From NCBI GenBank assembly GCA_019894975.1, contig JAGXNO010000004.1, positions 1-64,000 on the forward strand: a stretch of DNA of 64,000 nucleotides, read 5' to 3'. The notes below the pieces were generated by a model. That model was given only the letters and a program-made list of their open reading frames with translations, ran no database searches and had not been told where the DNA came from. The DNA is from Promethearchaeota archaeon. Lineage in GTDB: Archaea; Asgardarchaeota; Lokiarchaeia; Sigyniarchaeales; SOKP01. Below, in pieces: positions 12,467-30,023 of this stretch; position 1 is the stretch's first letter, and each line of letters starts with the position of its first letter. The translations under genes and the position numbers were made by a program.

Positions 12467-14353
12467 ATGTATATTAAGAAACAGACCTCTCGTCAACTTC
12501 CCGGAATAATATCATATATGGAGCTTTTTCAGTCAAGAAAGTTAGCTTATGCTACTTTTTTCGGCACTCCATTTGTTCTAGGATTAATTTCATTACTTCT
12601 ACATTTTATATTGATAAACGTATGGGAGTTTTTGCACTTTTTTAGATTTGTAGGCCTATTTTTACTTATACCCGGCTTAGCTGCTGGTTTTTCTATGTTG
12701 TTTTATTCTAAAAAAGCCCCTATTTTGCGACCACCTCCAATGGGATGGTCAATTCAAATGAATGTCTATTTTAGTGCGGTTATCGAAGTAACATTTATGC
12801 TTGGTCAGGTAATAGCAATAGTTCTTCAAAATATTTGGTATCAGGAAATGTTTCTAATTTTGGGAACTATCATATCGTATATTGTAGCTTTTGTTATCTA
12901 TTTTTCTTTTACTACAGTTGGACGCCCGGGATATATAATACTCTCCTTAGTTCAACCAGTGACTACGATACTCCTTTACAGTCTTTACATAGGCCAATTT
13001 GATCCCGACTTTTTTATTAGAGCGTTGGTTTTTTTTGTTACATGTGCTTTAATATTCGCGCTCCCGTATAGAAGAGGCTTGTTTCATGTTAGTAATGTCT
13101 ATAAAGAAGCAACTGGGATGAGCGGGTATCCCTTTATCAGGGCTTTTATTCTTTCTATGATGACTGATGGTAATGATGATCTTATAGAAAGCTATTTCGA
13201 AAGAGTTGGAATTAAAAAGGGTGTAAAGATTCAATATTTAGTTATAAGAAGTATATCCACTGAAGAGATTAAAGGTTTATTTGTTATCCCAAATGTACAT
13301 TTCGGTCCTTTCAAAACTTGCGGTTCTTCTGATTTACCCGAGTATATTTATAGGGCATTTAAGCATATTCCGGGTACAACTGTTTATCATACTACCAATG
13401 ACCATTCTCAAAATTTAACAACTCAAAATGATGTAGAAGTGGTTCTTAAAAAGATTGATCAAGACATATTATCAATAAAAAATAATCCCGAAATTAAATG
13501 GATTCAGGAAATTAAAAATTTTAATAGAAAAATATCAAATTCTGCTAAACTCATTGGGACAGAGATAGGAAAAACCCCCCTTATATTTATAACTAGGCAC
13601 CCTCTTCCTTCGGATGATATTGAATCTGAAGTAGGAGATAATATTAGGGAATTTGCCAAATCGTGTGGTCATCAAGATGTTATTATCGTAGATTCTCATA
13701 ATTCCATTATGGGAGATGAAATATTAATTAAAAAAGATTCGATTGAGGCTTTAGATCTAATAAACGTTTCAAAAGAGTTCTTTACAAGTGAAAGAGTAAT
13801 AAATTCCCCAAAAGTTCAGATGTTGTATGGTGTTGCGAAAGGCAGTATAAAGAATTATTCAGAGAAAGATGGTATTGGCGTTGGAGGGGTAGTTGTTCAT
13901 CTCTTTAGAGATACAACCAATAACCAGACCACAGCTTTGATTAATTTTGATGCAAATAATGCTTATGCAGAAATTCGGTCATATATTTTAAATATGTTAC
14001 AAAATAAAGGAATTGAAAAAGGAGAAATTACCACTTCCGATTCACACACAGTAGCAAGGCAATTCTCCGCTAGAGGGTATTCCCCTATTGGGGATAAAAT
14101 AAAGATTGACGAAATCTTAGATAAATTAAATTTATTGATTGAAGAGGCACAATCTAATCTAGAACCCGTCGAATTTTATTATAAAGATTCAATGGTAGAT
14201 AATGTAAGAATTTGGGGCGATCACCAGTATTTTAATGCTATTATTGATACACTAAAGGAAGCAATTAGGGTATCTCAGCGATTACTTACTCTTAGTTTAA
14301 TAGTACCTACCTTTTTCTCATTAATTATACTCTTTTTTCTGTATAATATCTGA
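12467..14353 (+). CDS. DUF2070-family membrane protein
   Basis: N-terminal TMs; VHFGPF, H.T.DH, DSHN, DANN and TSDSH motifs; C-terminal TM. Confidence 0.8.
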   Translation: MYIKKQTSRQLPGIISYMELFQSRKLAYATFFGTPFVLGLISLLLHFILINVWEFLHFFRFVGLFLLIPGLAAGFSMLFYSKKAPILRPPPMGWSIQMNVYFSAVIEVTFMLGQVIAIVLQNIWYQEMFLILGTIISYIVAFVIYFSFTTVGRPGYIILSLVQPVTTILLYSLYIGQFDPDFFIRALVFFVTCALIFALPYRRGLFHVSNVYKEATGMSGYPFIRAFILSMMTDGNDDLIESYFERVGIKKGVKIQYLVIRSISTEEIKGLFVIPNVHFGPFKTCGSSDLPEYIYRAFKHIPGTTVYHTTNDHSQNLTTQNDVEVVLKKIDQDILSIKNNPEIKWIQEIKNFNRKISNSAKLIGTEIGKTPLIFITRHPLPSDDIESEVGDNIREFAKSCGHQDVIIVDSHNSIMGDEILIKKDSIEALDLINVSKEFFTSERVINSPKVQMLYGVAKGSIKNYSEKDGIGVGGVVVHLFRDTTNNQTTALINFDANNAYAEIRSYILNMLQNKGIEKGEITTSDSHTVARQFSARGYSPIGDKIKIDEILDKLNLLIEEAQSNLEPVEFYYKDSMVDNVRIWGDHQYFNAIIDTLKEAIRVSQRLLTLSLIVPTFFSLIILFFLYNI

Positions 14354-14436: not shown

Positions 14437-15162
14437 ATGGCATTAAGTTTTTTAGATACTTTAAATGGTGTTTTTTCACTTATTTTTGTAGCGATCTCCT
14501 TGTTTGTAGGGTTTATAATACTCACCAGATATTTTAAGTATAAGGAAAGAGTATATTTTCTGGTCGGAGCTACTTGGGTATTAATTGCATCCCCTTGGTG
14601 GCCTTCTAGTTTATCATTTTTAGTAGCTCTATCTAATGGAACGGGAATTACCGAAGAGGCTTATTTTCTAATAGGAAATATATTTGTACCACTAGCAGTA
14701 GTGTTATGGTTATTGGCTTTCACAGAATTCCTTTACACTGAAAAACGCAAGTTAATTCTTATAATATTTACAATAATTGGCTTAATTTTTGAAGTCTTAT
14801 TTTTGACAATTCTATTCCTAAATCCAGACTTTATAGGCGAGTTGAATCCTCCCGTCGATGTAAACTATAAATCGTTTATTATGATCTTCCTCATAGTTTT
14901 TCTGCTAATCGTAGTGGTTACTGGCTTTTTATTTGCTAATCTTTCTCTGAAATCTAAAGATCCTGAAGTAAAACTTAAAGGAAAATTATTAGTAATTGCT
15001 TATATAACTTTTTCAGTTGGAGCTTTATTAGACTCATCTATACCGTTAAATGAGATATTGATTATTATAACTAGATTGATTTTAATACTAAGTGCGCTTT
15101 GTTGGTATGGTGGATTTTTGTTACCAAAATGGTTAAAAAAATTTCTTTTAAAAAAGAAATAA
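14437..15162 (+). CDS. Stand-alone 7-TM membrane protein (sensor-like)
   Basis: Seven hydrophobic segments in 241 aa, basic loops, basic tail (LPKWLKKFLLKKK), no soluble domain. Confidence 0.75.
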   Translation: MALSFLDTLNGVFSLIFVAISLFVGFIILTRYFKYKERVYFLVGATWVLIASPWWPSSLSFLVALSNGTGITEEAYFLIGNIFVPLAVVLWLLAFTEFLYTEKRKLILIIFTIIGLIFEVLFLTILFLNPDFIGELNPPVDVNYKSFIMIFLIVFLLIVVVTGFLFANLSLKSKDPEVKLKGKLLVIAYITFSVGALLDSSIPLNEILIIITRLILILSALCWYGGFLLPKWLKKFLLKKK

Positions 15163-15261
15163 TCCCCCATTTTTTTCTCTATATTACTTAGATATTATCC
15201 AGATTCATATTTTTTTTAAATCCATTATGTATTAATAATTCATTTAAAATCATGAATAGGT

Positions 15262-15783
15262 ATGTTAAGTACAGAATTAGACAAATTAGTAAAAATTACA
15301 TTGATAGGTTCTCCCGCAGTTGGGAAAACTACTATAGTTAAACTTTTATCAGAAAATACATTGGATCGTTTTTATATTCCAACTCATGGATTAGATTTAA
15401 AATCTGTAAAATTTGATGATTATTTTTTAAGATTATGGGATTTAGGTGGACAAAGTGGCTACCTCCGAACGTATTCTAAAGATTATTTAATTGGATCTGA
15501 TATTATTTTTGTAGTAACCGACTCTACACCTCGAAATGTATTAAATTCAAGAGATTTAATTAATTATGCATGTCATTTTGTGGGAAAAGAATGCCCTATC
15601 ATCGCAATAGCGAATAAACAGGATTTACAAGATGGTCGAATGGATCCGAAGAGGGTTGAGGATCTTCTTCATGTGAAAACATATGCTTTAGCAGCAATAG
15701 ATCCGATGGAAAGATTGAAACTAATGAATATAATAAAAAATGAATTAGAAAAAATAGCAATTAGGAGGGGATTAAAGAAATGA
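15262..15783 (+). CDS. Small Ras-superfamily GTPase (Arf-like)
   Basis: G1 GSPAVGKT, G2 PTHG, G3 WDLGGQ, G4 NKQD; G5 degenerate. Confidence 0.92.
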   Translation: MLSTELDKLVKITLIGSPAVGKTTIVKLLSENTLDRFYIPTHGLDLKSVKFDDYFLRLWDLGGQSGYLRTYSKDYLIGSDIIFVVTDSTPRNVLNSRDLINYACHFVGKECPIIAIANKQDLQDGRMDPKRVEDLLHVKTYALAAIDPMERLKLMNIIKNELEKIAIRRGLKK

Positions 15784-16340
15784 AATTTAATGAAGAAGAA
15801 GTGTTTGGGGCTGCTTTAATAGGATTTGATATGATCGATGGCCCTTTTCTTAAATGGAAAAAGGAATATAACAAAACAAAAAATATGGTTAAGTTAGACG
15901 ATTTTGCGATGAATTTTTATCTAGCGTTCCGAGGTGGAAACGCATCAGGAAAAAAACCAAGAGCAATACTATATGACAATTTTTATATTGTAGCTTTTCC
16001 AAGAGATTTAGAATTATGTTGTCTTTTTATGAAACCTCAAAATCTTGATGAAAACATTAAACAATTGAATAAAGTAGCCTCTAGGATTATTACAGAAATG
16101 GAAGTTAAAGAAAAACCCGAAGCTGAAGTGCCTATAGAGTCAGATGAAAACACTGTAGAAGAAATAATGAGATTGATCCCAAATATATTATCCGAAGCCA
16201 AAATGTCAACTCCAGAATTGAGAAGGTATTTTAAATTGAGTAATTCTCAAATCTGGAAAATCATGTCTGAATTAGAAAGTGCTAGAAAAGTCAAACGTGC
16301 AGAGAAAAAAGGCAGATCAATTATGTGGACTGCTTCTTAA
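15780..16340 (+). CDS. Longin/uDENN-like domain fused to a C-terminal winged-helix domain
   Basis: N-terminal ALIGFDMIDGP motif; C-terminal MSTPELRRYFKLSNSQIWKIMSELESARKV HTH; ATGA overlap with the GTPase gene. Confidence 0.65.
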   Translation: MKFNEEEVFGAALIGFDMIDGPFLKWKKEYNKTKNMVKLDDFAMNFYLAFRGGNASGKKPRAILYDNFYIVAFPRDLELCCLFMKPQNLDENIKQLNKVASRIITEMEVKEKPEAEVPIESDENTVEEIMRLIPNILSEAKMSTPELRRYFKLSNSQIWKIMSELESARKVKRAEKKGRSIMWTAS

Positions 16341-16377: not shown

Positions 16378-17193
16378 TTATCTTGTCCTGTGATCCCAAC
16401 CATGTTCCTTCGTATAAAGACGAGAAAACATGATATAGCATATATCAGGTAAATCTTCATCTAAATTGTTCACAGTTATATATCGAAGAATGTGATTTAA
16501 CACAAATATACCAATAAATTCTACATGATAACTTCCTAAATTTTTAGCTAAATTTTCACCATAGAATTTTATATCTAAACCACTTTCTTTATCCCACGTA
16601 ATTTCAGTGAATATTTGTGGAAAAATTTCTCTTTTTATAAGCCATCCATTAACGGTTTTCCGTACTTTAGCACCTAAAAAATTCTCAAGGCTTTCTCGAT
16701 CTTTTTCTTGTAAAAATTTGAATGGTGTTCCTCTCTGTAATAAAACTCTTTCCATTAAATCTGATTTTAAATCATATTTTTTTTCAAATGGTTCTTCTCC
16801 TTTTAGCTTTCTTTCGATAAGATCCATAACAATATCGACAAAAGTTGCGCTGTCTTCTCCAGGAACCCATGTGACATGATTTCCTGAAAAATAGAATTTA
16901 AATTCTGCTTCAATATCATCTCCAAATTCATCTCCAAAGTAAGAATAGCTCATATGAATATCGACATCTGGAAACATTTCAATAGTTATAGTCCAATCTT
17001 CACTAAAACCAATGTGTTCAACTTCTCCTCCTAAATCTTCTTTTACAATGGATTCAAGCTTATTTGAATCGATATCAATAAAGAGGTTAAATTTTGCTTT
17101 ACTTATATCTTCTAATTCCTTCTCATGAGGGCCTCTGACACCAGTAGCATCAATCTGTCCAATTGTCATGAATTTTCTATTTTCTGGTTTCAT
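16378..17193 (-). CDS. Hypothetical protein with two internal repeats, DUF3786-like
   Basis: LGG...WTITIEMFP...GDEF...FYFSG...GED is repeated as LGA...WLIKREIFP...IKFYG. Confidence 0.5.
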   Translation of the reverse strand: MKPENRKFMTIGQIDATGVRGPHEKELEDISKAKFNLFIDIDSNKLESIVKEDLGGEVEHIGFSEDWTITIEMFPDVDIHMSYSYFGDEFGDDIEAEFKFYFSGNHVTWVPGEDSATFVDIVMDLIERKLKGEEPFEKKYDLKSDLMERVLLQRGTPFKFLQEKDRESLENFLGAKVRKTVNGWLIKREIFPQIFTEITWDKESGLDIKFYGENLAKNLGSYHVEFIGIFVLNHILRYITVNNLDEDLPDICYIMFSRLYTKEHGWDHRTR

Positions 17194-29367: not shown

Positions 29368-29635
29368 TTTTATATTAATTTATGGATTAAGATTAGATCA
29401 AAATTATGATTCTTTCCTTTTTAAAATTGACTATTCTGTCTCGGAAGGTTAGTTATTCAAATGTTTTATGTAAACTTTAAAAAAGAGAATATGGAAGCAC
29501 ATGTCCATGATTTTATTCTATACAACCAGAATTCACAATGAATTTATAGTTTTCTTTAGTCTTATTCAAATCATTTCCAGAACAGGCTAATTGACAAAAA
29601 CCAAAAGTAAGTCTAAAATCTTCTGCAGTTTTATC

Positions 29636-29742
29636 ATTTTCGTGGATTTAAAAATTTTCGTGGACAAAAAACAAAAAAAGTAACCTTGGTTATACATAAG
29701 AATTACATAATCCTTTTTTTTTCTTACATAAGTTTTACATAA
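29636..29742. repeat. Short direct-repeat cluster in a 656 bp intergenic region
   Basis: ATTTTCGTGGA at 29636 and 29654; TACATAA at 29693, 29704, 29725 and 29736. Confidence 0.6.
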
Positions 29743-30023
29743 ATCAGAAATTATGCTTAACTTTCGATTATCTAAAAATCAGGCTTTAAATCTTTAAGGT
29801 CAATTCTTCTTTATTTAAAATTGACTTTTAATAATGGCTTTATTGTCAGGAGGTTAAATTAACAAAAATACCAATAAATTTCTTTCCTAACTTCCTTAAA
29901 GCCACTTTCGCAAAGTCACCCCCCTCATCCTTTTTAAAAGACTTAAAATATTAAATAATACTTCAATGTGAAGATTCCCAACATAAAATTTAATAAAAAT
30001 CATACAAGAAATCAGTGTAAATT

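Follow-up and report, generated by a model that had tools for sequence, protein, structure and literature searches.

Asgard archaeal genomes encode scores of small GTPases and of longin and roadblock proteins, and which regulator fits which GTPase is unclear. The GTPase genes of MK-D1 generally lie outside operons with roadblock or longin genes, and matching is hard (Tran et al. 2024; PMC10933270); a 2025 paper in Traffic asks which GTPases pair with the Asgard longins that carry a GP motif (PMC12290439). The locus examined here is a predicted two-gene operon (positions 15262–16340) encoding a small Arf-like GTPase and a product with a longin-type domain joined to a winged helix-turn-helix (wHTH), referred to below as the partner. 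It lies in a 64000-nt stretch of DNA (the window), which comprises bases 1–64000 of contig C120 in a metagenome-assembled Asgard genome of 3.9 Mb and ~31% G+C. Homologues carry Promethearchaeota or Lokiarchaeota names in their source records. A first-pass annotation had joined these two genes to the gene upstream, which encodes a seven-transmembrane (7TM) protein, as a possible receptor, switch and transcriptional effector. The switch and its partner stood up as a conserved, coupled pair with predicted binding and a wHTH of DNA-binding type, and the receptor half did not.

The longin-type fold modelled for the partner resembles that of the GP-motif GTPase-activating protein (GAP) longins, namely C9orf72, SMCR8, FLCN, NPRL2 and Asgard FLCN/SMCR8-type proteins, in which [WF]-D-x3-G-P precedes β-2; a GP motif at this place is described as specific to these proteins and a class of Asgard longins, and in C9orf72 the essential W33-D34 adjoins G38-P39 (PMC12290439). 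As in that group, the hairpin of the partner points, in the predicted complex, towards switch II and the catalytic Gln of a GTPase of the Arf family, and C9orf72-SMCR8 is an Arf GAP just as the client here is Arf-like. However, the partner is only 186 amino acids (aa) long, has no conserved arginine finger and no DENN or other large C-terminal domain, carries instead a wHTH of DNA-binding type, and sits in an operon with its GTPase. The GTPase in turn shares with Asgard ArfR/AArf (PMC11914678; bioRxiv 10.1101/2024.02.28.582541) an Arf Pfam match, the motifs WDxGGQ and NKQD and an Asgard origin, but differs from them in having a short N-terminus, which lacks both Gly2 and a long amphipathic helix, and an invariant P-loop Pro. 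The main text of both of those papers mentions no gene neighbours or operon partner.

Among prokaryotes, the nearest analogues are MglA/MglB and the actinobacterial conservons CvnA-D, in which a small GTPase gene stands beside that of a roadblock/longin regulator; conservons have been likened to G-protein signalling since a membrane sensor is added (PMC13343842, PMC13621833, PMC4316618). A conservon unites a histidine-kinase-like sensor, a roadblock protein, a DUF742 protein and an MglA-like GTPase in a single operon. The likeness extends to the fold, as the N-domain of the partner gives a match to MglB (Z 8.6). However, the GTPase described here is Arf-like rather than MglA-like, the regulator is fused to a wHTH and conservation of the pair does not extend to the membrane gene; no histidine-kinase or DUF742 domain was found in any of the genes using Pfam and NCBIfam. 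A different operon, with LAMTOR1-like, Rab-like and DENN proteins, was described by Liu et al. A literature search found no description of this Arf-like GTPase/longin-wHTH pair, and no paper linking a eukaryote-like GTPase switch to gene regulation via such a DNA-binding-type fusion and operator. The combination of a small GTPase with a longin-fold regulator is of a known kind, and what is new here is the fusion to a DNA-binding-type domain and the operon with a candidate operator.

Open reading frames (ORFs) and Pfam matches identified four co-oriented genes, encoding a DUF2070 protein, a 241-aa membrane protein, the 173-aa GTPase and the 186-aa partner. The features of the GTPase-partner operon are as follows.

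15262–15783, + strand: Arf-like (ArfR-type) small GTPase, 173 aa, assigned from the Pfam Arf match, solved relatives and motifs
15780–16340, + strand: longin-wHTH partner, 186 aa, assigned from the ORF and a fold model
15780–16103, + strand: partner N-domain, aa 1–108, longin/roadblock fold with invariant F16-D17-x3-G21-P22
16146–16340, + strand: partner C-domain, aa 123–186, winged helix-turn-helix, isoelectric point (pI) ~10, basic wing
15764–15768, + strand: GGAGG, Shine-Dalgarno-like, 11 nt before the partner ATG and within the GTPase gene
15181–15211, + strand: AT-rich element, candidate operator, 30 nt, made up of two 11-bp-phased repeats ATAWTAYNNRG followed by ATTCATATT
15230–15239, + strand: TTAATAA block TTCTTAATAA, likely TATA box, centred 27 nt before the ATG and forming the second block of the upstream alignment

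The stop codon of the GTPase gene and the start codon of the partner gene are joined in an ATGA at 15780–15783, the overlap that the first-pass annotation had reported. As this overlap is accompanied by GGAGG 11 nt ahead of the partner ATG, it is likely that both proteins are translated from one mRNA.

The partner is a single-copy protein found in 38 of 41 related genomes, and the best match to the GTPase is encoded directly upstream of it in 37 of the 38 genomes of the order that carry it, the remaining copy being a contig-end fragment. When 301 genomes of the phylum were searched with a profile, the partner family was recovered in 91, including members of seven families outside the class of the window, and was not found in several large families (for example, in 0 of 76 and 0 of 28 genomes). 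The cultured relatives MK-D1 and L. ossiferum have the family of the pair. The GTPase gene was again directly upstream of the partner gene in families f5, f6, f13, f14 and f20, and was not directly upstream of the short forms consisting of the N-domain only that occur in f12, f22 and f23. Outside g1, the genus of the window, all other neighbours of the pair differ, and overall the two genes stay adjacent across several classes and at least nine families, although everything around them changes. Gene order and overlap together indicate that the GTPase and longin-wHTH genes form a deeply conserved, translationally coupled two-gene operon.

The GTPase belongs to the Arf family, scoring 65.8 bits with Pfam Arf (PF00025) against a cut-off of 22.3, and its closest solved relatives are Arl3 (E 5e-14), Arl2 and Arf1. 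The motifs G1 to G4, which the first-pass annotation had described as intact, are present as GSPAVGKT (G1), T41 (G2), WDLGGQ at residues 59–64 (G3) and NKQD at 118–121 (G4). Among 12 GTPase orthologues, G1, T41, D60, G62, G63, Q64 and NKQD are invariant, as is a Pro in the P-loop at the position of Ras G12, and W59 is present in 11. The N-terminus begins M-L-S, with only 10 residues ahead of β-1, and the N-termini of the orthologues differ in length and sequence. Because Gly2 and the Arf N-terminal amphipathic helix are missing, the protein is classed as Arf-like (ArfR) rather than as a canonical Arf. It is not a G-alpha subunit either, as the match to PF00503 covers the P-loop only and reaches 17.7 bits against a cut-off of 48.8.

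In the model of the partner, the structural elements follow the order β-β-α-β-β-β-α, an acidic linker and the winged helix. The N-domain resembles roadblock and longin proteins about equally, with a Foldseek match to LAMTOR/MP1 (E 5e-4), VIA fold matches to a TRAPP longin (Z 8.7) and to MglB, and a further match to zeta-COP. Residues F16, D17, G21 and P22 are invariant in close and distant members of the partner family, and Y47, F50 and G53 are likewise invariant, even in the most distant members. The F16-D17-x3-G21-P22 motif is placed by the model in the loop ahead of β-2, and its spacing equals that of W33-D34 and G38-P39 in C9orf72. By motif, spacing and predicted place, the N-domain therefore matches the GP-motif GAP-longin class.

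The two proteins were modelled together, using both alignments and including GTP and Mg, in three runs and with three controls. The complex scored an ipSAE of 0.76 (0.72, 0.81 and 0.76 in the individual runs), whereas the best of the three controls scored 0.00. Among solved complexes 58 of 80 attain the mark used for this score, and among mismatched pairs 2 of 110 do; these counts hold only roughly here, as the alignments were user-supplied and small molecules were included. The runs share at least 95% of their contacts, and the partner has a pLDDT (predicted local distance difference test score) of at least 79 in the complex. The predicted interface on the GTPase comprises residues 17–19, 23, 35–45, 60, 64–67, 70 and 87–95, which correspond to the P-loop, switch I, switch II including Gln64 and a family-specific DSTPxN stretch. 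On the partner side it comprises residues 16–22, 44–56, 77 and 124–140, the last of these being helix 1 of the wHTH, and the invariant F16, D17, G21, P22, Y47, F50 and G53 all fall within it. Neither the recognition helix nor the wing is among the contacts predicted with confidence. Binding between the GTPase and the partner is thus predicted.

The C-domain of the partner is well modelled (pLDDT 78–89) as three helices and a β-hairpin wing. Its top fold matches are ArsR/MarR-type regulators, with NolR bound to DNA matched at VIA Z 10.5 and a root-mean-square deviation of 1.6 Å over 60 aa. The wing is basic and the pI of this domain is ~10 in the partner encoded in the window. Distant orthologues of the same architecture exceed the Pfam cut-offs for HTH_DeoR, HTH_11, HTH_5 and HTH_24, and the fold model and these profile matches indicate that the C-terminal wHTH is of the DNA-binding type. 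The best profile match in the PDB was the Z-alpha domain of PKZ (E 6e-4). A Z-alpha reading was rejected, as the Asn and Tyr with which Z-alpha domains contact Z-DNA align with W159 and S163 of the partner.

The C-domain is not the same in all members of the family. Variants P0259 and P0263 (L064, L065 and L072), from another class, have the same N-domain with a C-domain that resembles a helix-hairpin-helix and includes GLGPKR. Variants P0261 and P0266 (L066) consist of the N-domain alone with a basic tail. The genes for both types are still found directly after an Arf-like GTPase gene. Assignment of the alternative C-domain to the helix-hairpin-helix class was not adopted, as it found only a weak PolX match (E 0.39) and the GLGPKR sequence, and no Pfam match.

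The 30-nt element listed above is found ~50 nt ahead of the GTPase ATG in six genera, independent of which gene lies upstream. A position weight matrix (PWM) built from 25 family sites scored the element in the window at 40.6 bits, and as no other site in this genome scored above 21.2 bits the element is unique in it. Among 20 loci outside the PWM set, 7 had their locus-wide top match in the small upstream window, including a locus of family f4 at 8.6 bits. Archaeal TATA boxes have a standard position, and on this basis the TTAATAA block is likely to be the TATA box of a leaderless operon transcript. Both the element and the TATA-like block hold a fixed distance to the ATG across the six genera, and the alignment indicates that the GTPase operon is preceded by a conserved promoter region of its own. 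The partner may be the protein that reads the element at 15181–15211.

Together, these findings make it fairly probable that the two-gene operon encodes a GTPase-gated DNA-binding switch, probably autoregulated, and that the 7TM protein is not part of it. The functional unit would be the Arf-like GTPase and a partner in which an acidic linker connects a GP-motif longin-type domain to a winged helix. The partner would dock on the nucleotide face of the GTPase, with its FD-x3-GP hairpin against switch II and the catalytic Gln64 and with helix 1 of the wHTH against the P-loop and switch I. As docking would involve these parts of the nucleotide face, partner binding should depend on, or change, the GTP/GDP state of the GTPase. 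The complex, or the partner released from it, could bind DNA, because the recognition helix and the basic wing lie outside the confident contacts. The most likely DNA target would be the genome-unique repeat element ~50 nt upstream of the operon, at which binding is presumed, and if this is the target the GTPase-gated switch would be autoregulated. A reading in which the Arf-family GTPase directly gates a sequence-specific DNA binder, with the longin domain reading or altering the state of the nucleotide and the wHTH binding the operator, is put forward tentatively, as a possibility that we hold to be on the doubtful side.

Several points weigh against the GTPase-gated switch. The longin-like topology of the N-domain comes from a lone-chain AlphaFold2 model with a pLDDT of only 45–65, the binding of the pair is a model prediction, and part of the complex score may reflect memory of solved GTPase/longin complexes. 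No invariant Arg was found in residues 1–110 of the partner among close and distant orthologues, R51, R61 and R75 all being variable, and R131 in helix 1 of the wHTH, which is invariant in the order and predicted to lie near the P-loop, was rejected as an arginine finger as it is lost in distant members. Since no N-domain arginine is invariant, GAP chemistry of the FLCN/NPRL2/SMCR8 type is not supported. HMMER also found no sequence-level match of the partner to the GP-motif GAP-longin proteins. With the arginine finger missing and no HMMER link to the class, the partner is not filed as a GAP; by analogy its mode of action would be that of a GP-motif longin bound to a GTPase of the Arf type, in a role that may be that of a GAP, an exchange factor for guanine nucleotides (GEF) or an effector. 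With respect to DNA binding, the wHTH in the window falls below every Pfam cut-off (best E 0.014), and the net charge of this region is ~0 in the orthologues of family f2. Only family f1 shows the full element clearly; at many f2, f3, f5 and f20 loci it is weak or missing. Words resembling GATAWTAY also precede the operon in which the partner has a non-wHTH C-domain, and a different factor might therefore read the element.

The Pfam result, the neutral charge in f2 and the GATAWTAY-like words also speak for the alternative that the partner is purely a longin-class regulator of the GTPase (a GAP, a GEF or a scaffold), that the wHTH is a protein-contact module as in NPRL2/NPRL3, cullins or ESCRT-II with no output to DNA, and that another factor reads the element. 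NPRL2 and NPRL3 also join a longin domain to C-terminal winged helices. The presence of wHTH helix 1 in the predicted GTPase interface, fold matches of the wHTH to the cullin WHB domain, APC2 and ESCRT-II, and the occurrence of the N-domain alone in some lineages are all consistent with such a role. However, distant orthologues score above the cut-offs of four HTH families that bind DNA, the best fold matches come from regulators of the ArsR/MarR type (one of which was solved with DNA bound), the basic wing and the recognition helix are left outside the predicted interface, and the alternative C-domain in the other class also looks nucleic-acid-binding. A purely regulatory partner is therefore considered unlikely, and the GTPase-gated DNA-binding switch is preferred.

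A further alternative, that a 7TM receptor activates the GTPase, which then controls the longin-wHTH effector in a membrane-to-DNA pathway resembling that of G-protein-coupled receptors (GPCRs), depends on the gene upstream of the operon. The relevant features are as follows.

14437–15162, + strand: 7TM membrane protein, 241 aa, a neighbour only and outside the conserved module
15171–15177, + strand: T7 run, 8 nt past the stop codon of the 7TM gene and likely its oligo-T terminator
12467–14353, co-oriented with the three genes: DUF2070 membrane protein gene (Pfam)

The first-pass annotation had correctly described the three genes as co-oriented, the upstream product as having seven transmembrane helices, and the spacer as 99 bp with a T-tract. 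The spacer (15163–15261) contains T-runs at 15171–15177 and 15210–15217, and no RNA element was found in it using Rfam at E values up to 1. Oligo-T tracts act as archaeal terminators. The seven hydrophobic helices of the 7TM protein are connected by loops of at most 17 aa, with cytoplasmic loops of at most 14 aa and a C-terminal tail of 10 aa, and the basic cytoplasmic loops predict an N-out/C-in topology by the positive-inside rule. No Pfam or NCBIfam family was found for this protein. AlphaFold2 modelled it as a bundle of seven helices (pLDDT 90.5; predicted template modelling score, pTM, 0.85), for which the best fold matches were GABA-B (Z 12.1), adhesion GPCRs (Z 11.5–11.6) and, with Foldseek, mGlu4 (E 3e-4), with the alkaline ceramidase ACER3 also among the matches of Z 10–12. 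As this is the range that the fold-search tool states to be common among unrelated helical bundles, matches of up to Z 12.1 do not rise above the stated noise, and identification of the fold as that of a GPCR was rejected. The nearest named Atlas cluster was HisKA_7TM (0.87), a family found in 10% of members, which provides a lead only.

Synteny, a test that the first-pass annotation had itself proposed, largely refutes the receptor pathway. The three genes are adjacent in most g1 genomes, but the 7TM gene lies upstream of the GTPase gene in this genus only; the GTPase gene of genera g14 and g16 directly adjoins the DUF2070 gene, with no 7TM gene between, and that of g12 adjoins a divergent membrane/zinc-ribbon gene. 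Even within g1, an opposite-strand gene lies between the 7TM and GTPase genes in G006 (L019:2876–4558, encoding a 560-aa protein with leucine-rich repeats and a TIR domain) and in G024 (L020:3648–4205, encoding a 185-aa Ras-family GTPase), and no 7TM gene is present within 1 kb of the GTPase gene in G269 and G280. The 7TM family is scattered, with 4–33 copies per genome. Outside g1 the best matches are at most 49% identical and located elsewhere in the genome, and for this reason no true orthologue is recognised there; in other families, its relatives occupy different contigs or lie far from the GTPase gene. No GTPase gene was found within ~5 kb of the three other copies in the genome of the window, and an Arf-like gene in G026, separated from a 7TM relative by 2.4 kb and three genes, was judged to be there by chance. 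The 7TM gene is thus a genus-level neighbour, brought there by an accident of gene order, and the three-gene module was rejected, as its synteny breaks outside g1.

The receptor pathway retains the co-orientation and g1 adjacency of the genes, the N-out/C-in topology with GPCR-type bundles as best fold matches, and a second 7TM paralogue 93 bp downstream of a gene whose family often neighbours GTPase genes. The locus also resembles a GPCR/heterotrimeric G-protein system in that a bundle of this type adjoins a GTPase gene. However, there are no beta or gamma subunits, the G-alpha score is below the cut-off, the fold scores are at noise level, the linkage of the 7TM and GTPase genes is not conserved, the cytoplasmic loops are short, T-runs follow the 7TM stop codon and the GTPase operon has its own conserved promoter region. 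As the 7TM gene is only a genus-level neighbour, the trio is not a receptor-to-DNA "proto-GPCR" pathway, and the chance that it could yet prove to be one is very small. More plausibly, the 7TM gene would be a lineage-specific paralogue with its own terminator-like T-run that landed upstream of the operon in one genus and stands outside the system. Least probable of all is that the two genes of the operon are mere neighbours on a shared transcript with products that do not act on each other, for although their complex is only a prediction, they overlap, remain adjacent across several classes and at least nine families although all other neighbours change, and the most conserved partner residues map onto the predicted interface.

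Several further observations were made on the genes around the pair. The 7TM family is expanded in G240 (33 copies) and G215 (11 copies), compared with 4 in the genome of the window, and its invariant residues include D199 and R213. The spacer between the 7TM and GTPase genes appears to be an insertion hot spot. The DUF2070 gene and a convergent gene for a 271-aa DUF3786-like protein (16378–17193) are conserved neighbours of the pair in most of the genera sampled from family f1 and not outside it. A divergently transcribed gene flanks the pair in families f2 and f3; it encodes a ~260-aa protein with the conserved cysteine motif GPNCIDPxxCHGDCC and no Pfam match (L014:8577–9359, L015:8616–9392, L016:6820–7635, L017:6897–7718 and L021:4992–5450).

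A family of ~370-aa paralogues restricted to Promethearchaeota has a hairpin, HWSLQIGP, at its start that resembles a [WF]x-x3-GP motif. One copy (L024:3912–5000; G000:C120:89911–90996, outside the window) sits 93 bp upstream of a 7TM paralogue (L024:5094–5846), an arrangement seen in genus g1 only. Many copies are arranged tail-to-tail with genes for ~350-aa proteins with a GTPase domain (for example, G000:C105:28100–29146 and 29492–29944), and two of the four 7TM copies in the genome of the window adjoin genes of these kinds. Searches gave no named relatives of this family, and homology to the partner was rejected, as the hhalign probability was below 1%.

The negative result for the 7TM gene matters, as an attractive "proto-GPCR" trio proved to be a genus-level accident of gene order. 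For the pair itself, the overlapping, conserved operon and the predicted interface provide a directly testable match between a GTPase and its regulator. If true, this would provide the first concrete GTPase client for those Asgard longins with a GP motif that are thought to be ancestral to C9orf72, FLCN and NPRL2, and a eukaryote-type GTPase/longin switch would be wired straight into transcription in Asgard archaea.

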